From: Mycolicibacterium smegmatis | Lineage (GTDB): Bacteria; Actinomycetota; Actinomycetes; Mycobacteriales; Mycobacteriaceae | DNA: 32,000 bases | NCBI RefSeq assembly: GCF_001457595.1 | Contig: NZ_LN831039.1 | Span: 2,970,001 to 3,002,000, forward strand | Direction: 5' to 3' | In this document: piece after piece, positions 8,788 through 29,444 of the stretch | Numbering within the stretch: the first letter of the stretch is position 1 | Layout of the letters: every line of letters starts with the position of its first letter | Notes under the pieces: generated by a model | Told to the model about the DNA's origin: nothing | The model's input: only the letters and a program-made list of their open reading frames with translations | The model's database searches: none | Program-made: the position numbers and the translations under genes

Positions 8788-9600
8788 ATGGTGAATGAGG
8801 CCGCGGATCGTTGGTCCCCCGGACTGCGCGTCCTGCGCGGGGGCACGTCGACAACGCTGGAGGCCATCGGTGGCCTGTTCGCGATGTCGTCGGATGCGGT
8901 CCGGTTCGCGTTCCGCCGGCCGTTCCAGGGCCGCGAGTTCCTGGAGCAGTCGTGGTTCGTCGCGCGGGTGTCGCTGGCGCCGACGCTGCTGGTGGCCATC
9001 CCGTTCACGGTGCTCGTCAGCTTCACCCTCAACATCCTGTTGCGTGAACTCGGTGCGGCCGACCTGTCCGGTGCCGGGGCCGCGTTCGGCGCGGTGACAC
9101 AGGTGGGCCCGATGGTGACGGTGCTGATCGTCGCAGGCGCAGGCGCGACCGCCATGTGTGCCGATCTGGGCTCCCGCACCATCCGCGACGAGATCGACGC
9201 GATGGAAGTGCTGGGGATCAACCCGATCCAGCGTCTGGTCACGCCGCGGATCCTGGCCTCGGGTCTAGTGGCGCTGCTGCTGAACAGCCTCGTGGTGATC
9301 ATCGGGATACTGGGCGGCTACACGTTCTCGGTGTTTATCCAGGGCGTCAATCCGGGCGCGTTCGCAGCGGGTATCACCCTGCTGACGGGTGTGCCCGAGG
9401 TGATCATCTCGTGCATCAAGGCGATGCTGTTCGGCTTCATCGCCGGCATGGTGGCCTGCTTCCGTGGGCTCACCATCGCCGGTGGCGGCGCCAAGGCCGT
9501 GGGCAATGCCGTCAACGAGACTGTGGTGTACGCGTTCATGGCGCTTTTCGTCGTGAACGTGGTGGTGACGGCCATCGGTATCCGGATGACGACCGGATAG
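8788..9600 (+). CDS. yrbEA: Mce-system permease YrbEA (MlaE family)
   Basis: 270 aa. FRRPFQGREFLEQSWFVARVSLAPTLLVAIPFTVLVSFTLNILLRELGAADLSGAGAAFGAVTQVGPMVTVLIVAGAGATAMCADLGSRTIRDEIDAMEVLGINPIQRLV is near-canonical YrbE sequence. Confidence 0.9.
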   Translation: MVNEAADRWSPGLRVLRGGTSTTLEAIGGLFAMSSDAVRFAFRRPFQGREFLEQSWFVARVSLAPTLLVAIPFTVLVSFTLNILLRELGAADLSGAGAAFGAVTQVGPMVTVLIVAGAGATAMCADLGSRTIRDEIDAMEVLGINPIQRLVTPRILASGLVALLLNSLVVIIGILGGYTFSVFIQGVNPGAFAAGITLLTGVPEVIISCIKAMLFGFIAGMVACFRGLTIAGGGAKAVGNAVNETVVYAFMALFVVNVVVTAIGIRMTTG

Positions 9601-9611
9601 CGGGGCCGGTC

Positions 9612-10457
9612 ATGGTGGTACGAACCCTTCACCCACGCCTCACGCGTGAACTCCGTCGCCCGGTCGACGTCGCGGGCCGGCTCGGCGACCACACGTCGTT
9701 CTACGGCAGGGCACTGGCGGGCACCCCGCACGCGGCGATGCACTACCGGCGCGAGGTCATCCGTCTGATCGCCGAGATCAGCATGGGCGCAGGCACTTTG
9801 GCGATGATCGGCGGCACCGTCGTGATCGTCGGATTCCTCACCCTCGCCGCAGGCGGAACCCTGGCGGTCCAGGGCTACAGTTCGCTCGGGAACATCGGCA
9901 TCGAAGCCCTCACCGGCTTCCTCGCCGCGTTCATCAACGTGCGGATCTCGGCCCCGGTGGTGGCCGGTATCGGGCTGGCGGCCACGTTCGGCGCCGGCGT
10001 CACCGCGCAGCTCGGCGCCATGCGCATCAACGAGGAGATCGACGCGCTCGAGTCGATGGGCATCAGGCCGGTGGAATACCTGGTGAGCACGCGCATCGTC
10101 GCCGGCATGGTGGCCATCACGCCGCTGTACGCGGTCGCGGTGATCCTGTCGTTCGCCGCGAGCAACCTCACCACGGTCGTGATGTTCGGCCAGTCCGCGG
10201 GCCTGTACAACCATTACTTCTCGACGTTCCTCAACCCGGTCGACCTGCTGTGGTCGTTCCTGCAGGCCATCCTGATGGCGATCGCGATCCTGTTGGTGCA
10301 CACGTACTTCGGTTTCTTCGCGGCGGGCGGCCCGTCCGGTGTCGGCGTGGCCGTCGGCAACGCGGTGCGCACGTCGCTCATCGTGGTGATCGCGGTGACG
10401 CTGCTGGTCTCGCTGGCGGTCTACGGCTCCAACGGCAACTTCAACCTGTCGGGGTAG
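9612..10457 (+). CDS. yrbEB: Mce-system permease YrbEB (MlaE family)
   Basis: The ORF 9156..10457 is trimmed to ATG 9612, 11 nt after the yrbEA stop. It has the YrbE hallmark GAMRINEEIDALESMGIRPVEYLVSTRIVAGMVA and multiple TM helices. Confidence 0.9.
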   Translation: MVVRTLHPRLTRELRRPVDVAGRLGDHTSFYGRALAGTPHAAMHYRREVIRLIAEISMGAGTLAMIGGTVVIVGFLTLAAGGTLAVQGYSSLGNIGIEALTGFLAAFINVRISAPVVAGIGLAATFGAGVTAQLGAMRINEEIDALESMGIRPVEYLVSTRIVAGMVAITPLYAVAVILSFAASNLTTVVMFGQSAGLYNHYFSTFLNPVDLLWSFLQAILMAIAILLVHTYFGFFAAGGPSGVGVAVGNAVRTSLIVVIAVTLLVSLAVYGSNGNFNLSG

Positions 10458-10465
10458 CAGCGAAG

Positions 10466-11671
10466 ATGGCAGCGAAGACAAGAATGAGAACAGATGTGAG
10501 ACGTCCGTTGTTGGGCGTCGCGACCGCGGTGGTGATCCTCGCGGTCGTGGCCCTGTCGGTGAGTCTGTTCCGCGGCAGCTTCATCAAGTCTGTGCCCATC
10601 ACGGTGCTGACGCAGCGTGCCGGACTGGTGATGAACCCCGACGCGAAGGTGAAACTCCATGGGGCGCAGGTCGGCCGGGTGCAGGCAATCGAATCGTTGC
10701 CCGACGGGCGTGCGGCACTCCATCTGGCGATGGAACCGGCGTACCTGGATCTGATCCCGGCCAACGTCGGTGTCGACATCGCGGCGCCGACGGTGTTCGG
10801 CGCCAAGTCGATCGAACTCGTTCCGCCGCCGAACCCTGATCCGCAACCGTTGCGCGCCGGTCAGGTCCTGTCGGCCGACCATGTCACGGTCGAGATCAAC
10901 ACCATCTTCGAGAAGTTGTCCACCGTGCTGTCCAAGATCGAACCCCACAAGCTGAACCAGACCCTGGGCGCGTTGTCGGTCGCCGTCGACGGGCGCGGGG
11001 ACCAGATCGGTCAGATGCTCACGGAATTCGACGCTTTCCTGACGAAGATCGACCCGAGCCTGCCCACCCTGGACCACGAGCTCGCGGTGGCACCGCACGT
11101 GCTCGATGCCTACGCCGACGTCGCACCCGAGTTGCTCACGACCGTCGATGCGGCCACCACGGTCAGCCGCACCATCGTCGAGGAACGGCACAACGTCGAC
11201 GGGTTGCTGCTCAGCATGATCGGACTGTCCGACATCGGGATCGACGTCGTCGGTGCCAACCGGCAGGCGATCACCGACGCGGCGCACCTGCTGGCTCCCA
11301 CGACCGATCTGACCAACGAGTACCACCAGGCGCTCACGTGCGGACTCGGCGGCGCGGTCCAACTCGCCAAGGCGCCGGGCAGTCCGGTGCCCGGCGGGTT
11401 GCTGCTGCAGACCGTCGTGCTGGGGCAGGAGCGCTACCGCTACCCGGACAACCTGCCCAAGGTCGCGGCCAAGGGCGGCCCGCAGTGCACCGACCTGCCG
11501 AAGGTGCCCTTCCAGAAGCATCCGCCGTTCGTGATCACCGATGTCAACGCCAACCCGGCGCAGTACGGCAACGAGGGCATCCTGCTCAACTCCGACGGTC
11601 TCAAGCAGATGCTCTACGGCCCGATCGCCGGGCCGCCCCGCAACTCCGCCCAGATCGGACAGCCGGGATGA
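10466..11671 (+). CDS. mceA: Mce-family substrate-binding protein MceA (MlaD domain)
   Basis: Trimmed to ATG 10466, 8 nt after the yrbEB stop. It has an N-terminal TM (LLGVATAVVILAVVALSV) followed by an Mce/MlaD domain (VLTQRAGLVMNPDAKVKLHGAQVGRVQAIESL...). 401 aa. Confidence 0.9.
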   Translation: MAAKTRMRTDVRRPLLGVATAVVILAVVALSVSLFRGSFIKSVPITVLTQRAGLVMNPDAKVKLHGAQVGRVQAIESLPDGRAALHLAMEPAYLDLIPANVGVDIAAPTVFGAKSIELVPPPNPDPQPLRAGQVLSADHVTVEINTIFEKLSTVLSKIEPHKLNQTLGALSVAVDGRGDQIGQMLTEFDAFLTKIDPSLPTLDHELAVAPHVLDAYADVAPELLTTVDAATTVSRTIVEERHNVDGLLLSMIGLSDIGIDVVGANRQAITDAAHLLAPTTDLTNEYHQALTCGLGGAVQLAKAPGSPVPGGLLLQTVVLGQERYRYPDNLPKVAAKGGPQCTDLPKVPFQKHPPFVITDVNANPAQYGNEGILLNSDGLKQMLYGPIAGPPRNSAQIGQPG

Positions 11672-12699
11672 CGGGCATCGGTGGAACCGCGCTCAAGTTC
11701 GGCGTCTTCGGCGTCGTCATGACCCTGATGACGGGCGTGCTGTTCGTGATCTTCGGCGAGTACCGGTCGGGGTCGGCCAACACCTATTCCGCGGTGTTCG
11801 ACGACGTCTCCAGTCTCAAGCCCGGCGATTCGGTACGGGTGGCAGGGCTGCGCGTCGGAACCGTGAACAGTGTTGCGCTGCAACCCGACAACACCGTCGT
11901 CGTGAAGTTCGACGCCGACGACGACGTGCGCCTCACCGAGGGCACCACCGTGAAGGTCCGGTACCTCAACCTCGTGGGCGACCACTATCTCGAGCTCGTC
12001 GACGAGCCCGGGTCGGCGCGGATCCAGCCTCCGGGTTCGCAGATCGGCTCGGACAGAACCGAGTCCGCGCTCGATCTCGATCTGCTGCTCGGCGGATTGA
12101 AGCCGGTCATCCAGGGTCTCAATCCCCAGGACATCAACGCCCTGACCAGTTCGCTCATCCAGATCCTGCAGGGCCAGAGCGGTGACGTGGAAGCGCTTTT
12201 CGCGCGCACCTCCGCGTTCACCAACACCCTTGCTGACAACGGCCAGACCGTCGAGCAGCTCATCGTCAACCTCAACGACGTCCTCACCACGGTCGCCCGC
12301 GACGGTGAGAAGTTCTCCGGCGCGGTCGATCACCTGGAAACCCTGGTCACCGGACTGGCCGCGGACCGCGATCCGATCGCGGAGGCGATCACCGCACTGG
12401 ACAACGGAACCGCGTCGCTCGCGAGTCTGCTGACCGAAGCCCGGCCGCCGCTGTCGGGAACCGTCGACCAGATGGAGCGCCTGGCGCCGCTGCTGTCCAA
12501 TGACGACGACCTCGCACGCCTGGATCTGGCCCTGCAGAAGACCCCGGCCAACTACCGCAAACTGGTGCGGCTCGGCTCCTACGGCAGCTGGCTCAACCTC
12601 TACATCTGCGGTGTGTCGGTGCGCGTGACCGACCTTCAGGGCCGGACCGCCCACTTCCCGTGGGTCATCCAGAACACCGGAAGATGCGCGGAGCCCTGA
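11668..12699 (+). CDS. mceB: Mce-family protein MceB
   Basis: ATG 11668 overlaps the mceA stop (ATGA). It has an N-terminal TM (LKFGVFGVVMTLMTGVLFVIF) and an MlaD domain (YSAVFDDVSSLKPGDSVRVAGLRVGTVNSVAL). 343 aa. Confidence 0.9.
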   Translation: MTGIGGTALKFGVFGVVMTLMTGVLFVIFGEYRSGSANTYSAVFDDVSSLKPGDSVRVAGLRVGTVNSVALQPDNTVVVKFDADDDVRLTEGTTVKVRYLNLVGDHYLELVDEPGSARIQPPGSQIGSDRTESALDLDLLLGGLKPVIQGLNPQDINALTSSLIQILQGQSGDVEALFARTSAFTNTLADNGQTVEQLIVNLNDVLTTVARDGEKFSGAVDHLETLVTGLAADRDPIAEAITALDNGTASLASLLTEARPPLSGTVDQMERLAPLLSNDDDLARLDLALQKTPANYRKLVRLGSYGSWLNLYICGVSVRVTDLQGRTAHFPWVIQNTGRCAEP

Positions 12700-13775
12700 T
12701 GCACAAATATCGTGGAACACGGCTCATCCGGACCGGGCTGCTCGGCCTGGTCCTGGTGGTGCTCATCATCGTCGTCGGCCTGCAGCCGCAGCAGCTCATC
12801 CAGATGGCCACCTCGGTCCGCTATCACGCCGAGTTCGCCGAGGCCGGTGGGCTCACGGCAGGCAACGAGGTCAAGGTGTCCGGTGTGACCGTGGGCACCG
12901 TGTCCGATGTCGAGCTCGTGAACGGCCGCGCGCGAGTCACTTTCGCGCTCGACGGCAAGACACGGCTGGGACAGGACACGACGGCGCACATCCGCACCGG
13001 CACCCTGCTGGGGCAGCGAGTTCTCACCGTGGAACCGAAGGGCAGCGGGCGGATCGGCCCATCGGGTGTGATCCCGGTGAGCCGGACGGGTTCGCCGTAC
13101 TCGTTGACCGACGCGGTCGGTGACTTCACCACCAACACGGCCGAGACCGACACCGCGGCCATCAACCAGTCACTCGACGTCCTCTCGGAGACCATCGAGC
13201 GGATCGCACCTCAGCTCGCCCCGACCTTCGACGGCATCACGCGCCTGTCGCAGTCGCTCAACAATCGCAACGAGTCCCTCGCCGATCTGCTCAAGAGCGC
13301 ATCGGAGATCACCGGGATCCTCTCCGAGCGCAGTGAGCAGGTCAATCGGCTGATCCTCAACGCCAACGACCTGCTCGCGGTGGTCCGCGACCGCCGGTAC
13401 GTGATCGTCAACCTGCTGGCCAACACCTCGGCCGTGGCACGACAACTCTCCGCACTGGTCTCCGACAACGAAGCGGAACTCGCACCCGCGCTGGAGAAGC
13501 TCAACAAGGTCCTCGCGATGCTCGAACGCAACCGCGACAACCTCACGGCCTCACTCAAGGGACTCGCCAAATACCAGCTCACGCAGGGCGAGGCGGTCAA
13601 CAACGGGTTCTACTACTACGGTTTCGCCTCCAATCTGCTGCCCGGGCCCGCCATCCAGCCGTTCCTCGACTACGCACTCGGGTTCCGGCGCGGGGTCAAC
13701 GCGGGACAGCCGCCCGACAACGCCGGGCCACGCGCCGAGTTCCCCTTCCCCAACAACGGCATTCCCGGAGGATGA
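12699..13775 (+). CDS. mceC: Mce-family protein MceC
   Basis: ATG 12699 shares one base with the mceB stop (TGATG). It has a TM (LLGLVLVVLIIVVGL) and an MlaD domain (YHAEFAEAGGLTAGNEVKVSGVTVGTVSDVEL). 358 aa, with no Pro-rich tail. Confidence 0.85.
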   Translation: MHKYRGTRLIRTGLLGLVLVVLIIVVGLQPQQLIQMATSVRYHAEFAEAGGLTAGNEVKVSGVTVGTVSDVELVNGRARVTFALDGKTRLGQDTTAHIRTGTLLGQRVLTVEPKGSGRIGPSGVIPVSRTGSPYSLTDAVGDFTTNTAETDTAAINQSLDVLSETIERIAPQLAPTFDGITRLSQSLNNRNESLADLLKSASEITGILSERSEQVNRLILNANDLLAVVRDRRYVIVNLLANTSAVARQLSALVSDNEAELAPALEKLNKVLAMLERNRDNLTASLKGLAKYQLTQGEAVNNGFYYYGFASNLLPGPAIQPFLDYALGFRRGVNAGQPPDNAGPRAEFPFPNNGIPGG

Positions 13776-15235
13776 CGATGCGCGCCTCATGGCGGATCAC
13801 TCCGCGGCTCACGCGAATCCTGCTCGTCGCACTGGTGGCGCTGACTGCCGCCGGCGGCGGGGTCGTGTTGTACCAGAAGAATTTCGGCCCCAAGACGATC
13901 GTCGCCCATTTCACGTCGGCGACCGCGATCTACCCGGGTGACGAGGTCCGTGTCGCCGGCGTCAAGGTCGGCAACATCAAGACCATCGATGCCGCGGGCA
14001 CGACCGCGAAGATGACACTTGAGGTGCAGCGGGATGTGCCGATCCCGGCGGATGCCAAGGCGATCATCGTCGCGCAGAACCTGGTGTCGGCGCGATACGT
14101 CCAGTTGACGCCGCCGTACGGGGTCGACGGCGCGGACGGCCCCGTCATGGCCGACGGCGCCGAGATCGGTGTCGACCGCACCGCCGTGCCCGTGGAGTGG
14201 GACGAGGTCAAGGAGCAGTTGACCCGCCTGGCAACCGATCTCGGACCTGCCAACGGTGTGTCGGAGACGTCGCTGGGCCGATTCATCGACAGCACCGCCA
14301 ACGCCATGGCAGGCAACGGAGACAAACTGCGCACCACCATCGCGCAGATGTCGGAGGTGGGCCGCATCCTGGGAGAGGGCAGCGGGAACATCGTCGAGAC
14401 CCTGCAGAACCTGCAGACCTTCGTCACGGCGTTGCGCGACAGCAACGCCCAGATCGTGCAGTTCCAGGGCAGCCTGGCCGATGTCACCAGCGTCATCGAC
14501 GGCAGCCGGTCAGATCTGGACGCCGCGGTCAAAGACCTGTCCGAAGCGGTCGGCCTGGTCCAGGGTTTCATCTCCGGCACCCGGGATCAGACCGCCGAAC
14601 AGATCCAACGGCTCGCCGAGGTGACGCAGGTGTTGTCCGACAACAGCACCGTGGTCAAGAACGTGCTGCACGCCGCGCCCAACGCGTTGGTGAACGGCTA
14701 CAACATCTACAACCCCGACACCGGGGGGCCGCGAGGGTCGTTCGCCATGAACAACTTCGCCAATCCGGTGGCGGTGATCTGCTCTGCCATCGGTGCCGTC
14801 GAGAACGCCACCTCCGAAGAATCGGCCAAGGCCTGCGCACAGTACCTGGGACCGGCGCTGCGGTTGATGAACTTCAACTACCTGCCCATGCCGTTCAACG
14901 CCTATCTCGGACCGGCGCCCAAGAACGTGATCTACTCCGAGCCGGGCCTGGCTCCCGGCGGAGGCGGAACACCCTCGGCCCCTGCCGAACTGCCGCCTGC
15001 CGTATCGGCCTACACCGGCGCCGGCGACGTGCCGCCTCCTGCGGGATGGGCCGACCCACCGCAGCCCCCCGGTGCGTACACCCCGAACGGGCTTCCGGCC
15101 GAACGCCATCCCGCGTTGTACCCCGGCGCGCCGGTCCCGCCCGCCACCTCGCCGCCGCCGGCGTCGACTCTGGAGGACCTGCTGTTACCTGCCGAGATGG
15201 CCGCTGCGCCACCCGCACCGGAAGGAACCCCGTGA
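13772..15235 (+). CDS. mceD: Mce-family protein MceD with a ~99-aa Pro-rich C-terminal tail
   Basis: ATG 13772 overlaps the mceC stop (ATGA). An alternative ATG at 13778 has better spacing to GGAGGA. It has a TM (ILLVALVALTAAGGGVVL) and an MlaD domain (AHFTSATAIYPGDEVRVAGVKVGNIKTI). The tail runs 14936-15232. Confidence 0.85.
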   Translation: MTMRASWRITPRLTRILLVALVALTAAGGGVVLYQKNFGPKTIVAHFTSATAIYPGDEVRVAGVKVGNIKTIDAAGTTAKMTLEVQRDVPIPADAKAIIVAQNLVSARYVQLTPPYGVDGADGPVMADGAEIGVDRTAVPVEWDEVKEQLTRLATDLGPANGVSETSLGRFIDSTANAMAGNGDKLRTTIAQMSEVGRILGEGSGNIVETLQNLQTFVTALRDSNAQIVQFQGSLADVTSVIDGSRSDLDAAVKDLSEAVGLVQGFISGTRDQTAEQIQRLAEVTQVLSDNSTVVKNVLHAAPNALVNGYNIYNPDTGGPRGSFAMNNFANPVAVICSAIGAVENATSEESAKACAQYLGPALRLMNFNYLPMPFNAYLGPAPKNVIYSEPGLAPGGGGTPSAPAELPPAVSAYTGAGDVPPPAGWADPPQPPGAYTPNGLPAERHPALYPGAPVPPATSPPPASTLEDLLLPAEMAAAPPAPEGTP

Positions 15236-16422
15236 AGCCACGTAAGCCCGCACGCGGTTGGCTCGCCGTGGCCTGCTGTGCGGTCCTCACGGTATCGGGC
15301 TGCAGGTTCGACGGCGTCAACTCGCTACCGCTGCCTGGCACCGTGGGCACCGGGTCCGACGCGGCGACCTTCCACGTGCAGATCGCGAATGTCGGTACGT
15401 TGGAGCCCAATTCGCCCGTGATGATCGACGACGTCGTGGTCGGTGCGGTCCGCAGGATGACCCTGGACGGCTGGCACGCCGATGTCGAGGTGTCCGTGCA
15501 ACCCGACGTCGTGGTACCCGCCAACGCCGTCGCGACCGTCGGACAGACGAGTCTGCTGGGGTCGATGCACCTGGCGCTGGATCCGCCCGTGGACTCAGCA
15601 CCGGAGGGCAGGTTGGCGCCGGGCGCGACGATACCGCTGAGCCGATCGACGACCTACCCCTCGACCGAGCAGACCCTGTCGTCGTTGTCGCTGGTCGTCA
15701 ACGGTGGGGGACTGATGCAGATCGCGGATATCGTGCACAACTTCAGCGCGGCGCTCGACGGGCGCGCGGTCGAGATCCGAGACCTGCTGACGCGCATGAA
15801 CAACGTCGTCGGCATCCTCGACAATCAACGCGACAACATCGTCGCGACCATCGCGGCGATGAACCGTGTGGCAGGCACTTTCGCCGCGCAACGCAGCACC
15901 CTCACCGAGGCGCTCGACCGGATCCCACCCGCGCTCGAAGTTCTTGCCTCACAACGACCACAGATCACGACGGCCATGAACAAGCTGGGGGCGTTCAGCG
16001 ACATCGCCCATCGGCTGATCAACGACTCACAGGCCGATCTGGTCCGCAATTTGAAGAACCTCGAACCGACCGTGAAGGCGCTGGCCGACGTGGGCACGGA
16101 CCTGGTCACGGCACTGTCGTACCTTCCGACCTATCCCTACACCCAGGACTTCATCGACCGCGGCATCCGCGGCGACTTCATGAACCAGTTCATCGTCTTC
16201 GACTTCACCATCCCGCGTCTGAAGAGCGGCATCCTGCTCGGCACCCGGTGGGGACAGCCGGGAGCCTCACTGGTGCCTGCACCCGGTGACCCGTGGTACT
16301 CGTCGTACACGCTGGATCCGCTCAAGGCCCCGGTCACCCCCAAGCCCACCGAGTTGGCTCCGTTCCCGCCGACGGTCGACGGAGCCGGGGATGCGGCACC
16401 GGCCGCAGAGGGAGGCAACTGA
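15232..16422 (+). CDS. mceE: Mce-family lipoprotein MceE (Lpr-type)
   Basis: GTG 15232 overlaps the mceD stop (GTGA), with SD GGAAGGA upstream. The N-terminus VKPRKPARGWLAVACCAVLTVSGC carries a lipobox (VSGC). The MlaD domain reads FHVQIANVGTLEPNSPVMIDDVVVGAV. 396 aa. The N-terminal part of ORF 14197..16422 is an out-of-gene extension. Confidence 0.85.
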   Translation: MKPRKPARGWLAVACCAVLTVSGCRFDGVNSLPLPGTVGTGSDAATFHVQIANVGTLEPNSPVMIDDVVVGAVRRMTLDGWHADVEVSVQPDVVVPANAVATVGQTSLLGSMHLALDPPVDSAPEGRLAPGATIPLSRSTTYPSTEQTLSSLSLVVNGGGLMQIADIVHNFSAALDGRAVEIRDLLTRMNNVVGILDNQRDNIVATIAAMNRVAGTFAAQRSTLTEALDRIPPALEVLASQRPQITTAMNKLGAFSDIAHRLINDSQADLVRNLKNLEPTVKALADVGTDLVTALSYLPTYPYTQDFIDRGIRGDFMNQFIVFDFTIPRLKSGILLGTRWGQPGASLVPAPGDPWYSSYTLDPLKAPVTPKPTELAPFPPTVDGAGDAAPAAEGGN

Positions 16423-17909: not shown

Positions 17910-17922
17910 TCCCGGTGGATCA
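17907..17922. terminator. 16-nt palindrome TGATCC-CGGT-GGATCA carrying both convergent stop codons
   Basis: Read directly. The TGA of mceF (17907-17909) and the TGA of the minus-strand gene (17920-17922) form the outer ends of a 6-bp stem with a 4-nt loop. It is short, so terminator function is uncertain. Confidence 0.25.
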
Positions 17923-18432
17923 GGTCTTGACCAGTTTGAACGGCATCGTGATGTAGACGGGCTTGTTCACGCCGCAGGCACCGCTCTCACCGGTGGTGAT
18001 GTCCTCACCCACCAGGGTCGTCGACTTCGGGTCGTTCATCGCGCCGTTGGGCGTCATCGGCTTGAACCGGAACACCTGAAGCCCGGGTGCGGCGGTGCCG
18101 TCCGGGCACGGAACCCAGTCGGGGATGGTGTGTTTGACGTACCAGATCCCGCTCTTCTGGTAGATCGGTGCGGTCCAGCCCCATTCGCTGTGCACCGTGC
18201 CGGTGCATTCACCGGGGTAGCTGCACTGCGTGCTGATGGTCCAGGTGCTGCGCAGGCTGGCCTGCTCGTAGAACACGTCGTTCTTGCGCGCCCACTCACC
18301 GTTGGAGGTCGCGACATACGTGCCGTTGAGGCCCCAGTCGTTCTCCGCCGCGGCCGGTGCGCTCGTCGCCACGCCGAAGCAGGTCGCGGCGGCGGTGGCC
18401 ATCACGATCGATACCCGGGATACACGCATCAT
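17920..18432 (-). CDS. Small secreted protein, four Cys; probable distant paralogue of 7214..7693
   Basis: 170 aa, SD GAGGAG 6 nt upstream of ATG 18432. The signal peptide is MMRVSRVSIVMATAAATCFGVATSAPAAA. The mature part has STWTISTQC-x6-C, VPC and GAC, and ends ITMPFKLVKT. Confidence 0.7.
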   Translation of the reverse strand: MMRVSRVSIVMATAAATCFGVATSAPAAAENDWGLNGTYVATSNGEWARKNDVFYEQASLRSTWTISTQCSYPGECTGTVHSEWGWTAPIYQKSGIWYVKHTIPDWVPCPDGTAAPGLQVFRFKPMTPNGAMNDPKSTTLVGEDITTGESGACGVNKPVYITMPFKLVKT

Positions 18433-18559
18433 CGCCTACTCCTCGTACGCGCTGGCCAGTCCAGATCGGACCGAACGCTAACAACGGGTGGCGGTGCCGG
18501 GCGGGGGAGCGCCCACTGAGCGGACGCGCGGATGGTATCGCCGATGTCGCCGTGTCACA

Positions 18560-18952
18560 GTGCTGCCCGTGCGATCGACTGTGGTGGCGGCGATGACCGT
18601 GCTGTCCGTCGTCTCGGCAGCAATGACGGCGGTGTCGGGTCAACCGGCGTACGCCGAGAGCTGTGACGAACCGTCCTGCGTTCCCGGCATCACACCGAAC
18701 GTGGTGCTGGGCGCGCCGTGCGCGGACACCGCCCGCCACGTCTTCGGCACGACCTCCTGGGGCCGGCTGGTCTTCTGCGGTTCACCGCGCCGGTACGAGC
18801 CGCGCTATTTCCGGTCGCCACAGATGGCCGGCGTCAAGGAGCCGGGGACGAGCTGTGCGGGCTACGAGCACTGGGTGGCACAGGCCCCCGACGGATTGTT
18901 CCTGAGCTGCCAGTCGCATGACGGGGCTCCGTTGTGGGAGAGGGGCAACTGA
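18560..18952 (+). CDS. Small secreted six-Cys protein, unknown function
   Basis: The ORF 18488..18952 is probably started at GTG 18560, giving VLPVRSTVVAAMTVLSVVSAAMTAVSGQPAYA as a signal peptide. The start is uncertain; alternatives are 18488, 18569, 18581 and 18593. The mature part ESCDEPSCVPG...APCAD...VFCGS...TSCAGY...LSCQS has 6 Cys. Confidence 0.55.
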   Translation: MLPVRSTVVAAMTVLSVVSAAMTAVSGQPAYAESCDEPSCVPGITPNVVLGAPCADTARHVFGTTSWGRLVFCGSPRRYEPRYFRSPQMAGVKEPGTSCAGYEHWVAQAPDGLFLSCQSHDGAPLWERGN

Positions 18953-19353: not shown

Positions 19354-19380
19354 TGCCGCGCGGCTGATATCCCGAGCGTG

Positions 19381-22991: not shown

Positions 22992-22997
22992 GCTCCT

Positions 22998-23013
22998 CCT
23001 TCTTCGCAGAAGG
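22998..23013 (-). promoter_or_regulatory. 6-bp hairpin with GCGA (GNRA-type) loop overlapping the SD of the kstD-like gene
   Basis: The minus-strand RNA would read CCUUCU-GCGA-AGAAGG followed by AGGAGCAUG, so the 3' arm overlaps the SD (GAAGGAGGAG). The stem is weak (3 GC, 3 AU pairs). Confidence 0.2.
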
Positions 23014-23071
23014 TCAATGTTGCCTCCGGCGGGCGGCGGCGCAACGGGTTCTCCCGATGAGCGGTAGTGCC

Positions 23072-23094
23072 ACCACCCGTGGGGGTCGGGTGGT
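23072..23094. promoter_or_regulatory. Perfect 8-bp inverted repeat ACCACCCG-N7-CGGGTGGT 16 nt upstream of padR; candidate operator
   Basis: Read directly in the 118-bp divergent region between the kstD-like gene and padR. The dyad symmetry would suit a dimeric winged-helix regulator. No binding data are available. Confidence 0.3.
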
Positions 23095-23109
23095 TGTTAG
23101 CCTTGGCGA

Positions 23110-23805
23110 GTGACAGATGCCGCCGACACGCCGCTCGGTGAGCTGAACGTGTCGCCCACCGGATGGGCGTTGCTGGGCATGCTCTCCGGCGGTGACGAAC
23201 TGTCCGGTTACGACATCAAGAAGTGGATCAACTGGGCCATCCAGTTCTTCTACTCCAGCCCCGCGTACAGCCAGATCTATTCCGAACTGAAGCGACTGGA
23301 GCGGCTGGGCCTGGTGAGCTCGCGGGTCGACGCGGGCGCCCGCAGCCGGCGCATGTACAGGATCACCGACGCCGGACTGTCCGCCGTCACGCGGTGGGCC
23401 AACGAGGAGGCCGTCGAGCCGCCCACGCTCAAACACAACCCGGTGTTGCGGGTCATGCTGGGCCACTTGCTGAAACCGGGCCGACTGCGTGAGGTGCTCG
23501 CCGAGCACGCCGACTACGCCGACCGCATGCATCAGGCCGCCGCCACCGAGGCCCGCTGGACCGAGGACCAACCCGCCTGGTCGTACGCGGGACTGGCGCT
23601 GAGGTGGTCGGAGCGTTACTACGCCGCCGAACGCGAACTCGCGCTGCAGATGATCAAGGATCTCGACGCCGTCGAGGCACAGCTTGCCGACACGGGCGCG
23701 CAGAACATCGAGTTCCCGGTGCGCGAGTACTGGTACGAGGTCGAGCGGCGCATCGCGGCGGAGGAGACCGACGAGACACCGCCCGGCGCAGATCGGCCCG
23801 ACTGA
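23110..23805 (+). CDS. padR: PadR-family transcriptional regulator (long form with C-terminal dimerisation domain)
   Basis: GTG start. WALLGMLSGGDELSGYDIKKWINWAIQFFYSSPAYSQIYSELKRLERLGLVSSRVDAGARSRRMYRITDAGLSAV is a PadR winged helix. 231 aa. Confidence 0.85.
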   Translation: MTDAADTPLGELNVSPTGWALLGMLSGGDELSGYDIKKWINWAIQFFYSSPAYSQIYSELKRLERLGLVSSRVDAGARSRRMYRITDAGLSAVTRWANEEAVEPPTLKHNPVLRVMLGHLLKPGRLREVLAEHADYADRMHQAAATEARWTEDQPAWSYAGLALRWSERYYAAERELALQMIKDLDAVEAQLADTGAQNIEFPVREYWYEVERRIAAEETDETPPGADRPD

Positions 23806-23826
23806 GTTCCCCGGAGGGATCAGTCG
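23799..23826. terminator. Composite hairpin (7-bp CGACTGA/TCAGTCG plus inner 4-bp TCCC/GGGA, CGGA loop) carrying both convergent stop codons
   Basis: The TGA of padR (23803-23805) and the TGA of the minus-strand kstD-like gene (23820-23822) sit in opposite arms. There is a 2-nt bulge (23806-23807). Confidence 0.35.
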
Positions 23827-25496
23827 AGCCGGCCTGCGGCGTGCCGGGCCGCGATGTAGCCGAACACCAGACCCTGCCCGATGGTGGCGCCCGCGCCCGG
23901 GTAGCTGGCGCCGAAGGTGTTGGCGGCGGTGTTGCCGATGGCGTAGAGACCCTCGATCACCGAGCCGTCCTCACGCAACGCCCGGCCGCGGGCATCGGCC
24001 CGCACGCCACCGCACGTGCCGAGGTCGCTCAGCACCACCTTCACCGCGTAGAGCGGGCCGTCGTCCAGCGGGCGCAGATTGGGGTTCGGTGTCACGGTGG
24101 GGTCGCCGTAGTAGCGATCGTAGGCGCTGTCGCCGCGGCCGAAGTCGGAGTCGACGCCGGTGCGTGCGAGCGCGTTGAAGCGGCTCAGTGTGGCGGTCAG
24201 GACCGACACGTCGACGCCGATCGACCGCGCGAGTCCGCCGAGATCGTCACTGCGGTGCGCGATGCCGGCGTCATACCAGGTCTGCGGGATCGGCATCCGC
24301 GGAAACAGTTCGGCGGCAAGCAGATAGCTGTTGCGGTACCGCTGGTCGAAGATCATCCACATCACGTCGACCGGGTTGCCCACGCGCTCACGGTCCAGCA
24401 CGCGCTGCCCGAACGACATGTAGTCGGTGGCTTCGTTGATGAACCGGTTGCCGGTCTGATCGACCAGCAGGCAGCCGGGCAGTGACCGCTCGGCGAGCAT
24501 CACGGTGGGCTCACCACCGGGTAGGGGAGCGAACGCGGGGAACCACCACGCCTGGTCCATGAGTCCGGTGTCGGCGCCGAGGTCCTGGGCGATGCGGATA
24601 CCGTCGCCGGTGTTGCCCTCGGATCCGAGGCTGAGGTCCTCGTTCATCGATTCGGACTGGAACTTGCGCCGCCAGTCCATCTGGTGGTCGAAGCCTCCGG
24701 TGGCCAGCACCACGCCCCGGCGTGCGGTGATGGCGACGTCGATGCCGTTGCGGTTCACCACCGCACCGGTCACCCGATCGCCGTCGACCAGCAGGCGGAC
24801 CAGCGGACTCTGGGTCCACACCGGGATGCCGGCGCGCAGTACACCGGCGTACAGTCCTGCGGCGAGCGCCTGACCGCCTGCGGCGTACCGGCGGCGCAGG
24901 GCCAGTCCACCGATGCCCTGGAACGCGCGCAGCATGATGCGCGGGACGGCCTTTCGCGGCACGCGCGCCATCAGGTTCAACCAGCGATAATCGGCGCCGG
25001 TCACCGGCATCGGGAACGAGGATTTCATCACCCCCGGCCGCAGCCGTGACAGTTCCCGCCCGAGGACGGCGGTGTCGAACGGGCGGCATTCACACGTGCG
25101 GCCGACGGCACTGCCACCGGGACGCTCCGGGTGATAATCCGAATACCCCTTGGCCCACTGGAATTTCATCGGCGTGGTGCGCCGCAGCATCTCGACTGTC
25201 GCGCTGCCGTGATCCAGGAACGCCCCGGCCCGGTCGGCCGGTGCGGCATCGGCGACGAGGGTCTCCAGATAGGTGCGCCCGGCATCGAGGGTGTCGTCGG
25301 AACCCTCTTCGGACAGGATCGGATTGGCAGGCATCCAGAACGCGCCGCCTGAGCGTGCGGTCGACCCGCCGACCAGGGCGGTCTTCTCCACGATCATCGC
25401 CGACAACCCGAGTTCGTGCGCGGCCAGTGCCGCGGCCATTCCGGTGCCGGAGCCGACAACCAGCATATCGACGGTGAGGTTCTGGGGATCAGTCAC
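23820..25496 (-). CDS. kstD: 3-ketosteroid delta-1-dehydrogenase-like flavoprotein (KstD family)
   Basis: The ORF 23820..25763 is trimmed to GTG 25496, giving 558 aa. Motifs: VDMLVVGSGTGMAAALAAHELGLSAMIVEKTALVGGSTARSGGAFWMPANP and C-terminal GLYAIGNTAANTFGASYPGAGATIGQGLVFGYIAARHA. The upstream 89 codons are Arg/Cys-rich and non-homologous. Confidence 0.8.
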   Translation of the reverse strand: MTDPQNLTVDMLVVGSGTGMAAALAAHELGLSAMIVEKTALVGGSTARSGGAFWMPANPILSEEGSDDTLDAGRTYLETLVADAAPADRAGAFLDHGSATVEMLRRTTPMKFQWAKGYSDYHPERPGGSAVGRTCECRPFDTAVLGRELSRLRPGVMKSSFPMPVTGADYRWLNLMARVPRKAVPRIMLRAFQGIGGLALRRRYAAGGQALAAGLYAGVLRAGIPVWTQSPLVRLLVDGDRVTGAVVNRNGIDVAITARRGVVLATGGFDHQMDWRRKFQSESMNEDLSLGSEGNTGDGIRIAQDLGADTGLMDQAWWFPAFAPLPGGEPTVMLAERSLPGCLLVDQTGNRFINEATDYMSFGQRVLDRERVGNPVDVMWMIFDQRYRNSYLLAAELFPRMPIPQTWYDAGIAHRSDDLGGLARSIGVDVSVLTATLSRFNALARTGVDSDFGRGDSAYDRYYGDPTVTPNPNLRPLDDGPLYAVKVVLSDLGTCGGVRADARGRALREDGSVIEGLYAIGNTAANTFGASYPGAGATIGQGLVFGYIAARHAAGRLD

Positions 25497-25631
25497 TGCG
25501 CGATTCTCAGGCGTCGACCGTGAGGCGTGCGCCGGGCCCGCCCGGTCAGTGGAACAGCAGACCCACTCTGGCCCCGCGCCGGTGTTACATCGGAAGGTCT
25601 TTGCAAGCGACACATGACGAGGATGGCCGGT

Positions 25632-26792
25632 ATGACATCGTTGCAGCCCGACGGCGGCACCGGCGAGGTTCGCCAGATCGAGGCGCAGGCAGCGCCGACA
25701 CGATTCGCGCGAGGCTGGCACTGCCTGGGGTTGATCCGTGAGCTCGGGGACGGTAAACCGCACGCGATCAACGCCTTTGGTGGAAAGCTCGTGGTCTTCC
25801 GCGGTGCCGACGGAAAGATCAACGTGCTGGACTCATATTGCAGGCACATGGGCGGCGATCTGTCCGACGGCGAGGTGAAAGGCAACGAGATCGCCTGCCC
25901 GTTCCACGACTGGCGCTGGGGTGGCGACGGACGCTGCAAGCAGATCCCCTACAGCCGCCGCGTGCCCAAGCTGGCCCGCACCGCCACCTGGCCCACCCTG
26001 GAGCAGGACGGCATGCTGTTCGTGTGGAACGACCCGGAGAAGAACCCGCCGCCGCCTGAGGTGACGATCCCGCGCATCGAGGGCGTGGGCACCGACCGGT
26101 GGACCGACTGGCACTGGTACACGACGGTGGTGCACACCAACTGCCGCGAGATCATCGACAACGTCGTCGACATGGCCCACTTCTTCTACATCCACGGTGG
26201 CCTGCCGACGGGCTTCAAGAACGTCTTCGAGGGGCACATCGCCACGCAGTACTACAAGAGCGAGGCGCGCCCGGATCTCGGATCCGGTGAGGGCGCGAAG
26301 ATCCTCGGGACCACGTCGGTCGCCTCCTATTACGGGCCGTCCTTCATGATCGACGACCTGACCTACCACTACGAGCACGGTGACCAGCGCACCGTGCTGC
26401 TCAACTGCCACTATCCGATCGACGCCAATTCCTTTGTGCTGCAGTACGGCATCACCGTCGAGATGTCCGATGCGGTGCCGCACGACGTCGCGACCCAGAT
26501 GGCCGTGGCGCTCGGCGATTTCGTCAAGATGGGCTTCGAGCAGGACGTCGCGATCTGGAAGCGCAAGGCGCGCATCGACAATCCGCTGCTGTGCGAAGAG
26601 GACGGCCCCGTCTACCAGCTGCGGCGGTGGTACGAGCAGTTCTATGTCGACGTCGCCGACGTGACGCCGGACATGGTGGACCGCTTCGAGTTCGAGATCG
26701 ACACCACGCGTCCGCGGGAGGCCTGGCTCAAGGAGGTCCAGGACAACCTGGCCGCGGGCCGGCTGCCCAGACTGGTGGGCGTCAACAAGTGA
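25632..26792 (+). CDS. kshA: 3-ketosteroid 9-alpha-hydroxylase oxygenase component-like Rieske protein (KshA family)
   Basis: The ORF 25527..26792 is trimmed to ATG 25632 (SD GAGGA 8 nt upstream), giving 386 aa. It has ARGWHCLGL, the Rieske motif CRHMGGDLS...CPFHDWRW, and the mononuclear iron region NVVDMAHFFYIHG. Confidence 0.85.
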   Translation: MTSLQPDGGTGEVRQIEAQAAPTRFARGWHCLGLIRELGDGKPHAINAFGGKLVVFRGADGKINVLDSYCRHMGGDLSDGEVKGNEIACPFHDWRWGGDGRCKQIPYSRRVPKLARTATWPTLEQDGMLFVWNDPEKNPPPPEVTIPRIEGVGTDRWTDWHWYTTVVHTNCREIIDNVVDMAHFFYIHGGLPTGFKNVFEGHIATQYYKSEARPDLGSGEGAKILGTTSVASYYGPSFMIDDLTYHYEHGDQRTVLLNCHYPIDANSFVLQYGITVEMSDAVPHDVATQMAVALGDFVKMGFEQDVAIWKRKARIDNPLLCEEDGPVYQLRRWYEQFYVDVADVTPDMVDRFEFEIDTTRPREAWLKEVQDNLAAGRLPRLVGVNK

Positions 26793-27067
26793 CGGTGCGG
26801 CCCGACAACCGGCTCGCCGACGCGCCCATGCGGCCGGTCGGGTGTGGGACCTGCGGTGCGCGCGTGCTGGTGCGCAAGGCCAGCTGGGAGCAGACCAGCG
26901 TGCAGTGGAGCGCGGCCGCACGGCAGAGGTGCGTGGACCCGCATCGCCATGCCGGACAGACACTGTCGCTGTGCCCGCAGCTGCGTACCGCGATCGAGAA
27001 CGCGGTCCTGGAGGGCGCAGTGCCGGTGCTCGCCGAATCGGAGGATGCGAATGCGCATCGCGGATAG
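26789..27067 (+). CDS. Small four-Cys (CxxC...C...C) protein, translationally coupled to kshA-like gene; function unknown
   Basis: GTG 26789 overlaps the kshA-like stop (GTGA). The 92-aa product reads VTVRPDNRLADAPMRPVGCGTCGARVLVRKASWEQTSVQWSAAARQRCVDPHRHAGQTLSLCPQLR... Codons almost all end in G/C, as in neighbouring genes. An alternative ATG lies at codon 14. Confidence 0.55.
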   Translation: MTVRPDNRLADAPMRPVGCGTCGARVLVRKASWEQTSVQWSAAARQRCVDPHRHAGQTLSLCPQLRTAIENAVLEGAVPVLAESEDANAHRG

Positions 27068-27842
27068 GGTTTTCGTCGTCACCGGTGCAGGCAACGGCAT
27101 GGGGCGTGAGGTGGCGTTGGGCCTGGCCCGGCGGGGCGCACACGTCGCCGCCGTCGACCTCGACGAAGCGGGCCTCGCCGGCACGGCCGAGCGCGCCCGC
27201 GGCACCGGGGCGAGGATGTCGACCCACGTTCTGAACGTCACCGACCGAGACGCGGTGGCCGGGCTGCCCGACGCGGTGCTCGACGTCCACGGCCAGATCG
27301 ACGGTCTGGTGAACATCGCCGGAATCGCCCAGAGGTTCGCGCTGTTCACCGACCTGGAGGCCGACCAGATCGACCGGGTGACGACCGTGAACTTTTTGGG
27401 CACGGTGCAGATGTGCCGAGCCTTCCTGCCGGTCCTTCGGCAACGACCCGAGGCCAACATCACCAACATGTCCAGCCTGTCGGCGCTCGTGCCGTTCGCC
27501 AGCCAGGTGCTCTACAGCGCGAGCAAGGCCGCCGTCCAGCAGTTCAGCGAGGGACTCGACGCCGAACTCGCCGACACCAACGTCCGTGTGGTGACAGTGT
27601 TTCCGGACCAGGTCTCCACCAACCTGGCACAGAACTCCGGAGTGAAGATGCTCGACGCCGGCGGGCGGCGGGCCCCGGTCACCACACCCGAGGCCGCCGG
27701 GCGCAAGATCGTCACCGGCATCGCCAAGGACCGGTACCGGGTGATCATCGGTACCGACGCCCACGTGCTGTACACACTGTCGCGGTTGGCGCCGCGGCGC
27801 ACGGCCCGGATGGTGGCCAAACAGATCAAATCCGTTCTCTGA
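27051..27842 (+). CDS. Short-chain dehydrogenase/reductase (classical SDR)
   Basis: The ORF 26844..27842 is trimmed to ATG 27051 (SD GGAGG 6 nt upstream). Motifs: VFVVTGAGNGMG, NIAG, catalytic YSASK. 263 aa. It overlaps the end of the small ORF by 17 nt. Confidence 0.85.
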   Translation: MRIADRVFVVTGAGNGMGREVALGLARRGAHVAAVDLDEAGLAGTAERARGTGARMSTHVLNVTDRDAVAGLPDAVLDVHGQIDGLVNIAGIAQRFALFTDLEADQIDRVTTVNFLGTVQMCRAFLPVLRQRPEANITNMSSLSALVPFASQVLYSASKAAVQQFSEGLDAELADTNVRVVTVFPDQVSTNLAQNSGVKMLDAGGRRAPVTTPEAAGRKIVTGIAKDRYRVIIGTDAHVLYTLSRLAPRRTARMVAKQIKSVL

Positions 27843-27854
27843 TCAGGAGTATCG

Positions 27855-29444
27855 ATGCCGACAGGTCGTGACTACGACGTCATCATCGTGGGGTTCGGCG
27901 CCGCAGGCGCGTCCGCCGCGATCGAGGCCGCCGACCGCGGCGCCCGTGTGCTGGTGCTCGACCGAGGCTACGGCGGCGGCGCCACGGCCTACTCGGGCGG
28001 CATCGTCTACGCCGGTGCGGGAACACCCGAGCAGCGCGCGGGCGGCTACTCCGACAGCGTGGAGAACATGCGCGCCTACCTCGGGCAGGAGGTGGCCGGT
28101 GCCGTCAAACCCGAGACCCTGGCCCGGTTCTGTGAGCAGAGCCCGGCACTGCTCGAGTGGCTCAAGGCCCAGGGCGTGCCGTTCCGGGGCGGGGCGGTGC
28201 CGTCGTACAAGACCTCGTACCCCACCGACGACAACTACCTCTACTACTCGGGCAACGAAAAGGCCTACCCCTACGTCGATCACGCGCAACCCGCCCCACG
28301 AGGCCATCGCGTGCTCGCACCGGGCATGAGTTCCGGGCGGGTGCTTTTCGAGCGCCTCCGGGATTCCGCGCTGGCCAAGGGTGTGCACTTCACGCCGCTG
28401 GCGCACGTACATTCGCTGATCCAGGACGAAGACGGCAGGGTCACCGGTGTCCGGTACACGGTCACCGACCCCAGGCACCGCAACGCGCGTCGGCACCGGC
28501 GCATCGCCAAGGCCACGGGCAAGCTGGGCACCTGGATGCCCAGAGCGGTCGCCGGGGCCGTGGCCCGAGGCGAGCGCCTGCGCGCCGAGGCCGGTGTCGA
28601 GGCGCACGCGACCGCAGGCGCGGTGATCCTCGCCGCGGGCGGGTTCATCAACAACCGCGACTGGGTCAGCCGTTATGCGCCGGAATTCCTGAAGATCTCG
28701 CCACTGGGCACCGTCGGCGACGACGGCACCGGGATCCGGTTGGGACTCGACGCCGGGGGAGTGACCGACAAGATGGGCAACGTCACGGCCTGGCGGTTCC
28801 TGTCGCCGCCCAGTGCGTTCCTGGAGGGGCTGACCGTGGGGGCGGACGGGCGACGGATCGCCAACGAGGATCTCTACGGCGCCGCGCACGGTAGCGTGCT
28901 CATGCGCGAGTTCGGCGGTACCGGATGGGCGATCTACGACGCCGCCACCTGGCGGAAGATCAAACACCAGATCACCGAACAGACCCAGGTGTTCCAGCGA
29001 CTGCAGATCTGGTACCTGCGGACCATAGGCCACAAGAAGGCGGCCACCATCGAGGGCATCGCGGCCAAGAACGGCATCGACGCCGCGGCGCTGCGCAAGA
29101 CCGTCGACGAGTACAACCGTAGAATCGCCGGCGGGGCAGGTGATCCCGCACACAAAGATCCGTCGCTGTGCCCACCGATGGAGCGGGGACCGTTCTACTC
29201 CATCGACATCTCCGCCGATTCCTCGCTGTTCTACCCGATTCCGGGGCTGACGTTGGGCGGTCTGGTGGTCGACGAGGACACCGGAGCGGTGGTGCACCGC
29301 GACGGCGGGGTGGTGCCGGGCCTCTACGCTGCGGGCCGGACCGCGGTCGGTGTGTGCTCCAACAGCTACGTCAGCGGGTTGTCGATCTCCGATTGCGTGT
29401 TCAGCGGTCGGCGGGCCGGCGCGGACGCCGTCGCGAAAATCTAG
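27855..29444 (+). CDS. FAD-binding dehydrogenase (FAD_binding_2; divergent KstD / fumarate-reductase flavoprotein-like)
   Basis: 529 aa, SD GGAG 6 nt upstream. Motifs: YDVIIVGFGAAGASAAIEAADRGARVLVLDRGYGGGATAYSGGIVYAG and C-terminal GLYAAGRTAVGVCSNSYVSGLSISDCVFSGRRAG. Confidence 0.8.
   Translation: MPTGRDYDVIIVGFGAAGASAAIEAADRGARVLVLDRGYGGGATAYSGGIVYAGAGTPEQRAGGYSDSVENMRAYLGQEVAGAVKPETLARFCEQSPALLEWLKAQGVPFRGGAVPSYKTSYPTDDNYLYYSGNEKAYPYVDHAQPAPRGHRVLAPGMSSGRVLFERLRDSALAKGVHFTPLAHVHSLIQDEDGRVTGVRYTVTDPRHRNARRHRRIAKATGKLGTWMPRAVAGAVARGERLRAEAGVEAHATAGAVILAAGGFINNRDWVSRYAPEFLKISPLGTVGDDGTGIRLGLDAGGVTDKMGNVTAWRFLSPPSAFLEGLTVGADGRRIANEDLYGAAHGSVLMREFGGTGWAIYDAATWRKIKHQITEQTQVFQRLQIWYLRTIGHKKAATIEGIAAKNGIDAAALRKTVDEYNRRIAGGAGDPAHKDPSLCPPMERGPFYSIDISADSSLFYPIPGLTLGGLVVDEDTGAVVHRDGGVVPGLYAAGRTAVGVCSNSYVSGLSISDCVFSGRRAGADAVAKI

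Follow-up and report, generated by a model that had tools for sequence, protein, structure and literature searches.

In mycobacteria, Mce transporters serve as the chief gateways for lipids, and the locus described here raises the question of what one of them, Mce5, carries and whether it serves the steroid-degrading enzymes encoded beside it. We analyzed a stretch of 32,000 nucleotides of Mycolicibacterium smegmatis DNA (contig NZ_LN831039.1, positions 2,970,001 to 3,002,000; hereafter the window, numbered from its first nucleotide), in which an mce5 block (8788-20814) adjoins kstD3, the regulatory gene padR, kstD2 and kshA2, genes of the C-19+ steroid cluster. Comparison across species places palindromes from the promoter regions of the two gene sets in one motif family with one geometry, making co-regulation and steroid import by Mce5 plausible, though unproven. 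Whether Mce5 belongs functionally to the C-19+ regulon is, in our judgment, an evenly balanced question.

The identity of the locus is clear. The DNA is 100% identical to GCA_029221955.1 over 20.6 kb and 99.05% identical to CP001663.1, which we take to be strain mc2 155. KstD3 is residue-for-residue identical in many M. smegmatis assemblies, and MceF at 99% identity carries the NCBI species name Mycolicibacterium smegmatis. The products of kstD3 (MSMEG_2867), padR (MSMEG_2868), kstD2 (MSMEG_2869) and kshA2 (MSMEG_2870) match the C-19+ cluster in order and protein, with lengths of 522, 558 and 386 aa for MSMEG_2867, 2869 and 2870 as in Table 1 of PMC5270728; DNA identity and protein lengths thus bear out the initial annotation, which had put forward a PadR-controlled C-19+ cluster with the order kstD-padR-kstD-kshA. 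This cluster of M. smegmatis mc2 155, described by Fernandez-Cabezon, Galan and Garcia (cited in PMC5962712), has evolved separately from the KstR regulon and seems to be required for the efficient use of androstenedione (AD), androstadienedione (ADD) and 9-hydroxyandrostenedione (9OH-AD) (PMC5962712). Its kshB2 gene (MSMEG_2893) lies past the right end of the window (PMC5270728), and MSMEG_2857 and 2858 represent MceC- and MceD-type genes (PMC4881515), which fixes the numbering and places exactly six genes between mceF and kstD3, as found here. The window, from a different strain with 99% DNA identity, is the left arm of this published PadR-controlled cluster, with mce5 embedded in it. The original limits of the cluster are said to be MSMEG_2851-2901, which would already take in the mce genes, and hsaA2, hsaC2 and hsaD2 reportedly lie further along it. 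PadR is reported to repress the cluster, padR mutants reportedly expressing it constitutively and growing on C-19 steroids. The locus is already known.

The transporter corresponds to the first M. smegmatis mce5 operon in Table 3 of Casali and Riley (2007; PMC1810536), sharing with it yrbEAB, mceA-F and a downstream Mas pair whose lengths in Table 4 agree with the 218 and 190/199 aa seen here. No substrate or link to steroid genes is given for that operon there, and in the window a minus-strand Rv2253-like gene stands between mceF and the accessory genes. Membership of the mce5 subfamily is drawn from the Table 3 entry, from MSMEG_2857/2858 and from a Mycobacterium colombiense MceF that is 68% identical and accompanied by the same accessory genes.

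KstR, the regulator of the Mce4 sterol importer, was rejected as the controlling factor. The KstR operator TnnAACnnGTTnnA has no exact match in the window and no match with one mismatch in the mce leader, in agreement with the earlier observation that the AACnnGTT core is missing from that leader. MSMEG_2867, 2869 and 2870 are likewise described as lacking both a KstR operator and cholesterol induction (PMC5270728), and the proposal that this unit is distinct from Mce4/KstR stands. No TetR gene and no hsa gene was found among the genes searched in the window, as first reported; the hsa genes are missing because the window edge cuts the cluster.

Palindromes at divergent promoters

Phylogenetic footprinting of the kstD3/padR divergent promoter region (22992..23109) in 10 species and of the kstD2/kshA2 region (25497..25631) in 26 loci reveals that each keeps two conserved blocks, A and B. 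Element A holds the TGn-TAnnn part of an extended -10, while element B reads CC(R)CTGAYCGGG and in Nocardia becomes a perfect TCCCG-N5-CGGGA. Between kstD3 and padR, element B occupies 23050-23068 (core TCCCGATGAGCGGTA), and the padR extended -10 (GTTGTTAGCCT, 23093-23103) lies directly upstream of the GTG start, suggesting a leaderless padR mRNA. Between kstD2 and kshA2, element B occupies 25538-25556 (TGTTCCACTGACCGGGCGG on the minus strand; position weight matrix (PWM) score 28.6) and element A 25579-25593, the two being spaced 36-37 nt apart in the 18 most closely syntenic loci; the kstD2 -10, GAGAAT, lies at 25503-25508 on the minus strand.

The element-B PWM, run over all loci, finds strong matches at these promoters in all genera sampled, at 41 nt from kstD2 and at about 40-70 nt from padR. 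Strong matches also precede a SnoaL-SDR-esterase-hyp358 operon in other species, and further such matches lie upstream of kshA and of an SDR276-like gene in Nocardia and upstream of an alpha/beta-hydrolase gene beside mce5 in M. colombiense. Weaker matches (9.5-12.7) lie upstream of hsaD and hsaA in locus L035, which has no PadR gene within 10 kb. Searches of the window with the consensus sequences CCRCTSAYCGGG and GTTSTARCACCG, allowing up to two mismatches, return exact matches only at the two known sites, with totals at chance level. An extra element-B-like site, TATACCGCTGCCCGGGAGG (22886-22904, minus strand; PWM score 14.3), is situated about 90 nt into the kstD3 coding sequence, and several species have it at this same position; it may act as a second operator or simply reflect conserved coding sequence.

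The mce leader, a 213-bp divergent promoter region between SDR276 and yrbEA (8575..8787), holds a perfect palindrome, TCCCAGTGGATGGGA, at 8666-8680. It is the sole exact TCCCR-N5-YGGGA in the window; with one mismatch the pattern occurs nine times against eight expected, so only the exact match is informative. The palindrome block is the most conserved block of the leader in seven of eight species. A second conserved palindrome, GCCCACTGAGCGGAC, was located at 18511-18525 in the sec170/sec119 divergent promoter region (18433..18592) by alignment of 18 species. An Rfam scan of the window gave no match and thus detected no known RNA element in the leaders, and an inverted-repeat search of the leaders returned nothing useful beyond a hairpin at 19373-19430, described with the accessory genes below.

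Cross-species motif profiles of these sites were compared by column permutation. The mce leader block resembles both the kshA2/kstD2 site (z = 5.2, p = 0.0005) and the padR/kstD3 site (z = 4.4, p = 0.0005), a likeness equal in strength to the one between the two PadR-module sites themselves (z = 4.3, p = 0.0015). The sec170/sec119 palindrome resembles the kshA2/kstD2 site (z = 4.1, p = 0.001), and its likeness to the padR/kstD3 site is not significant by the same permutation.

The four intergenic regions also share a geometry, with -10-like hexamers, picked by eye, 38-39 nt either side of the palindrome centre. In the mce leader these are CAACGT (8630-8635, minus strand) and TGcCATGGT (8709-8717), 38-39 nt from the centre; between sec170 and sec119 they are ACGCTA (18475-18480, minus strand) and CACAGT (18556-18561), each 38 nt off. 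From this arrangement we infer promoters set symmetrically back to back, with the palindrome near -50, and transcripts of padR, kstD2 and sec119 that lack a leader. For sec119 the true start is probably GTG 18569, not the called ATG 18593: the GTGCG start is conserved and opens an N-terminal hydrophobic stretch with a typical signal peptide (MRSTVVAAMTVLS...), and its position 7 nt past the conserved -10-like CACAGT suggests a leaderless mRNA.

PadR is the obvious candidate to bind the palindrome, since a site always lies beside padR. Because the mce5 promoters carry a palindrome of the PadR-module family and geometry, seen at the yrbEA/SDR276 promoter and, less clearly, at the sec170/sec119 promoter, mce5 would probably form the uptake arm of the C-19+ regulon, with at least three transcription units of its own, and Mce5 would supply the ring-A/B enzymes with a steroid or a steroid-like hydrophobic substrate. 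In its most specific form the proposal is a tentative one, to which we give rather less than an even chance: Mce5 would be a dedicated importer of side-chain-less (C-19-type) steroids or related polycyclics, co-induced with the ring-opening enzymes through an operator family of the TCCCR-N5-YGGGA type, placed at about -50 in symmetric divergent promoters and bound by the cluster PadR or by a close paralogue in trans.

Linkage of mce5 and steroid genes across species

A KstD3 scan with one genome per species yielded 80 loci, which were mapped with the proteins of the window; 68 of them, with at least 4 kb of sequence downstream of kstD3, are informative. A Mce5-type operon lies immediately downstream of kstD3 in 31 of these 68, each in another species, and padR orthologues are 70-89% identical across syntenic loci. 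Three arrangements stand out among the loci. The full M. smegmatis order (esterase, kshA2, kstD2, padR, kstD3, thioesterase, mas pair, small secreted-protein genes, mceF-A) is shared by about 14 species, drawn from the genera Mycolicibacterium, Mycolicibacter and Mycolicibacillus. In a second group (L024, L028, L031-L035, L037, L044, L045, L048, L050 and L052), sec170 and then mceF through yrbEA follow kstD, and no PadR module lies within 10 kb; upstream of this kstD lie an alpha/beta-hydrolase gene, an HsaA-type oxygenase gene and, in one locus, an extradiol dioxygenase gene, giving a compact hsaD-hsaA-hsaC-kstD set. The third group holds a complete PadR module without mce, SDR276 coming directly after kstD3 (73-79% identity in L036, L046, L055, L068, L079 and others). 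Among the 58 loci informative on both sides, mce and PadR/KshA occur together in 13, mce only in 11, PadR/KshA only in 13 and neither in 21. The synteny that the initial annotation expected between the mce locus and the PadR module is therefore found in part, 13 PadR modules standing without mce.

Because kstD3-thioesterase and SDR276-hyp159 are adjacent and co-directional in genomes lacking the block, the mce5 block (8788-20814) appears to behave as a 12-kb cassette, lying inverted between these two gene pairs. Sampling from the other direction, we mapped the neighborhoods of seven MceF orthologues. Four are linked to a PadR module (M. wolinskyi, M. thermoresistibile, M. chitae and M. vanbaalenii; 75-79% identity), and the other three (M. 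colombiense, a 3519A-like strain and JER01; 68-72%) have no steroid genes nearby. A neighbor-joining tree of MceE and MceF groups the PadR-linked systems into one clade and the hsa-kstD-linked systems into another, with the unlinked systems between both. The mce-steroid linkage is thus recurrent, not universal, and much of it may descend from few events.

Variation within the linked loci was also seen. In M. chitae (L094 2311-3122), the yrbEA reading frame is broken into two pieces of 198 and 73 aa, and mceE lacks a Pfam match; Mce5 of this species may be decaying, though it adjoins an intact PadR module. The kstD3 operon of M. vanbaalenii (L092 14611-18937) gains a thiolase, a ChsH2-like OB-fold protein and a flavin reductase, and in M. 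wolinskyi (L090 14980-15507) a flavin reductase replaces kstD3.

Several observations weigh against Mce5 as the uptake arm of the C-19+ regulon. The mce genes had been described as running with zero intergenic bases into a thioesterase/kstD operon; the zero gap is real (TGATCA at 20812-20817), but the plus-strand stop codon of mas5B abuts the minus-strand stop codon of the thioesterase gene, so the two blocks are convergent and mce5 is not co-transcribed with the kstD3 operon. In RNA sequencing performed without replicates, expression of MSMEG_2854-2865 was higher on cholesterol than on AD or glycerol, and AD gave no induction (PMC4881515), and kshA2, kstD2 and kstD3 are not induced by cholesterol (PMC5270728). 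At the promoters, the strict PadR-module PWM misses the leader and sec-gene sites in the M. smegmatis window, scoring them below 5 where shuffled sequence reaches 11.7 on average, so that the link to the leader rests on cross-species profiles and not on M. smegmatis alone. The leader palindrome also differs at its centre (CCYAC vs CTGAY), and a simple repressor would not usually have its palindrome centred near -50. The leader palindrome is kept in two of the three species whose mce5 lacks steroid neighbors, so its presence does not depend on a local PadR; these three of seven MceF orthologues and the 13 PadR+KshA modules with no mce within 10 kb count on the same side. A literature search found no uptake, knockout or substrate study of Mce5. 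Wild-type mc2 155 is said to keep the C-19+ cluster repressed on AD, and the RNA-sequencing data accordingly do not settle the coupling.

Much of this evidence is shared by a rival explanation, which we consider possible but less likely than not: that Mce5 imports another hydrophobic substrate (a fatty acid, another lipid or a side-chain sterol), that its position reflects a historical cassette insertion kept by descent in one mycobacterial clade, and that its palindrome belongs to a wider regulon or a paralogous regulator, not to the cluster PadR. Many otherwise complete PadR modules have no mce block, with SDR276 directly after kstD3, and Mce5 orthologues (68-72%) reside among unrelated genes (WS/DGAT, nitrile hydratase, flavohaemoprotein), the leader palindrome being kept in two of those three unlinked species. 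The response of mce5 to cholesterol and not AD in the only open dataset (PMC4881515) fits this explanation as well, as does the monophyly of PadR-linked Mce5, by which most linked cases may be one inherited event. It accounts less readily for the second linkage of other build, hsaD-hsaA-hsaC-kstD beside a Mce5-type operon, which occurs in a separate clade and has palindromes of the same family upstream of hsaD and hsaA, or for a leader/PadR-module motif likeness that equals the likeness between the two PadR-module sites.

Gene content of the locus

The gene map was built from open reading frame (ORF) picking guided by GC content at third codon positions (GC3), Pfam, NCBIfam and public gene calls for the identical contig, and every gene named in the initial annotation was found at or near its coordinates. 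The transporter genes are all on the plus strand. Two MlaE-type permeases, yrbE5A (8788-9600) and yrbE5B (9612-10457), match PF02405 with E = 1.5e-55 and 3e-54, and are followed by six MlaD/Mce protein genes: mce5A (10484-11671), mce5B (11668-12699), mce5C (12699-13775), mce5D (13778-15235), mce5E (15232-16422) and mce5F (16422-17909). All six Mce proteins score 188-228 bits against TIGR00996 (cut-off 140.5), and MlaD and Mce4_CUP1 domains are assigned to five of them directly by Pfam and to mceE through public calls of the identical contig. An ORF at 15258-16289, considered for mceE, was rejected: it has no Pfam match, and the true mceE frame ends at 16422. YrbEA matches YrbE1A (E = 2.6e-94) and MceA matches Mce1A (E = 2.3e-63) of the Mce1 cryo-EM structure 8FED. 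No Mkl/MceG ATPase gene was found in or beside the mce locus, the sole ABC ATPase gene, at the left edge of the window, belonging to a peptide-type system; mycobacterial mceG is unlinked and shared (PMC6678751).

Downstream of mceF, sec170 (17920..18432, minus strand) encodes a protein that combines an N-terminus resembling a signal peptide with an Rv2253/PknI-type domain (NF052447, E = 1.9e-25). Its end lies 10 nt from the mceF stop, and in other species it always adjoins mceF, in either orientation. The yrbEAB-mceA-F, secreted-protein and mas genes, first read as one plus-strand run, are all present, but sec170 breaks the run, leaving the mce locus with three or more transcription units. It is followed on the plus strand by sec119 (called 18593-18952, from a gene call) and sec139 (18934-19353; Rv2576c_beta domain, PF27168), each with a signal-peptide-like N-terminus, and by the Mce-associated membrane protein genes mas5A (19562-20218) and mas5B (20215-20814). 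The Mas proteins are weak paralogues (27% over 121 aa, E = 5e-4), each with an N-terminal transmembrane segment; no Pfam or NCBIfam profile model matched the pair.

Between sec139 and mas5A, an inverted repeat at 19373-19430, composed of 20-nt arms with 85% complementarity and an 18-nt loop, folds at -41.3 kcal/mol (z = -2.3) with no U-tail, and could serve the accessory-gene unit as an I-shaped terminator or as an internal regulatory hairpin. Two tight convergent junctions are present, mceF/sec170 (17910-17919, a 10-nt gap) and mas5B/thioesterase (20812-20817, no gap). As neither has a recognizable terminator, transcription arriving from either side is expected to continue, as antisense, into the genes opposite. 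A sigma-70 promoter and terminator scan of 17800-21500 found none.

The steroid module begins with a hotdog (4HBT) thioesterase gene (20815-21426, minus strand; PF03061), which overlaps kstD3 (21423-22991, minus strand; NF009474, 985 bits against a cut-off of 675) by 4 nt. Then come padR (23110..23805, plus strand; PF03551, 37.9 bits against a cut-off of 27), kstD2 (23820..25496, minus strand; NF009479 equivalog, 1074 bits against 793) and kshA2 (25632-26792, plus strand; PF19298 (KshA_C), E = 1.8e-89, and Rieske PF00355). The 647-aa ORF proposed for the second KstD was rejected as over-extended, the called kstD2 gene encoding 558 aa. KstD3 aligns over its full length to the Rhodococcus KstD structures 4C3X/8JBZ (E about 1e-128), retaining the catalytic Tyr119, Tyr318, Tyr487 and Gly491 (Rhodococcus erythropolis numbering), and KshA2 matches the KshA structure 4QDF (E = 8e-175) with its Rieske and iron-binding motifs, CRHMGG...CPFHDWRW and DMAHFFYIHG, aligned. 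KstD3 and KshA2, by these residues and motifs, and KstD2, by its equivalog match, look intact.

Three further plus-strand genes follow kshA2: orf92 (26789-27067), SDR263 (27051-27842) and FAD529 (27855-29444), a flavoprotein resembling 3-ketosteroid delta-4(5-alpha)-dehydrogenase, with 4AT0 its closest structure (E = 2.6e-57). The 92-aa product of orf92, a gene that overlaps the kshA2 stop and is kept after kshA in all syntenic loci at 46-78% identity, has four cysteines (C19, C22, C48 and C62) and matches no family; a role as a small metal-binding partner of KshA2 is possible.

On the minus strand, hyp358 (29508-30584, from a gene call) and Est326 (30691-31671), a hormone-sensitive-lipase-type esterase, form the end of the SnoaL-SDR-esterase-hyp358 operon, which starts outside the window. 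No match to hyp358 was found in Pfam, NCBIfam or PDB sequences. It is 81-96% identical across mycobacteria, above most of its neighbors, and 72-75% identical in Proteobacteria (Sphingomonas, Parahaliea), where it stands beside SDR genes outside obvious steroid clusters, with SnoaL_4 genes and an esterase nearby in Sphingomonas. An AlphaFold model of hyp358 (pLDDT 75.8; one of five models good) shows weak likeness to 2-oxoglutarate/Fe(II) oxygenases (Foldseek E about 1e-3, TM 0.3-0.48), with H140-x-D142 and later His residues invariant.

The left flank holds the peptide-type ABC system, composed of two permeases (1164-3001), a solute-binding protein (3004-4590) and the ATPase gene cut by the window edge, then an MFS/HxlR pair, an F420-dependent reductase and hyp159 (7214..7693, minus strand). 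This gene call encodes 159 aa with a signal-peptide-like N-terminus and no NCBIfam match, and counting genes makes it about MSMEG_2851. A hyp159 homologue lies upstream of and divergent from yrbEA in the Mce5 loci of other species, including M. colombiense. Between hyp159 and the mce leader lies SDR276 (7744..8574, minus strand), a short-chain dehydrogenase gene (Pfam adh_short) divergent from yrbEA.

Mce5 among mycobacterial Mce systems

Cargo is described in the sources consulted only for Mce4, which carries sterols, and Mce1, which is linked to fatty-acid uptake. Mce4, under KstR, has the same ABC/Mce transporter gene set and also adjoins steroid catabolic genes; it belongs to another Mce subfamily with demonstrated import, whereas the locus described here has no KstR box, a local PadR regulator and, as neighbors, ring-A/B enzymes for side-chain-less steroids. 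Mce1 of M. smegmatis (8FED/8FEE/8FEF) provides the closest solved structure and, by analogy, Mce5 is expected to adopt its hetero-hexameric needle architecture, although Mce1 is a paralogue, not an orthologue, with different genomic neighbors. The SCG-2 cluster of Mycolicibacterium sp. HK-90, a second steroid cluster with kstD, kshA, kshB, hsaA and its own Mce genes, offers a functional parallel, its Mce genes being co-induced with the enzymes 6-78-fold by diosgenin (PMC10880577). There the inducer is diosgenin and the regulators are kstR, tetR and iclR, not PadR, and its likeness to the present locus is an analogy, not an established orthology.

These comparisons bear on a second rival, in which Mce5 would maintain or export cell-envelope lipids, as proposed for non-Mce4 systems of M. 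smegmatis, with no metabolic tie to the steroid genes. The several accessory genes for apparently secreted or membrane proteins at the locus would suit such a role. We nevertheless consider it improbable: those Mce systems to which the review PMC6678751 assigns a role, namely Mce4 for sterols and Mce1 with its link to fatty-acid uptake, are importers, the gene set of the transporter corresponds to that of Mce1, and linkage to catabolic genes recurs in two architectures.

The value of linking Mce5 to the C-19+ regulon lies in a sharper testable hypothesis and a candidate operator at a known cluster in a model organism, not in a discovery. If Mce5 does carry C-19-type steroids, this would explain how side-chain-less steroids enter the cell and would make Mce5 the third mycobacterial Mce system, following Mce1 and Mce4, with an assigned substrate class. 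It would also define a PadR steroid regulon with a recognizable operator, and in industrial steroid-producing Mycolicibacterium it would offer an engineering target for blocking the re-uptake and degradation of product.

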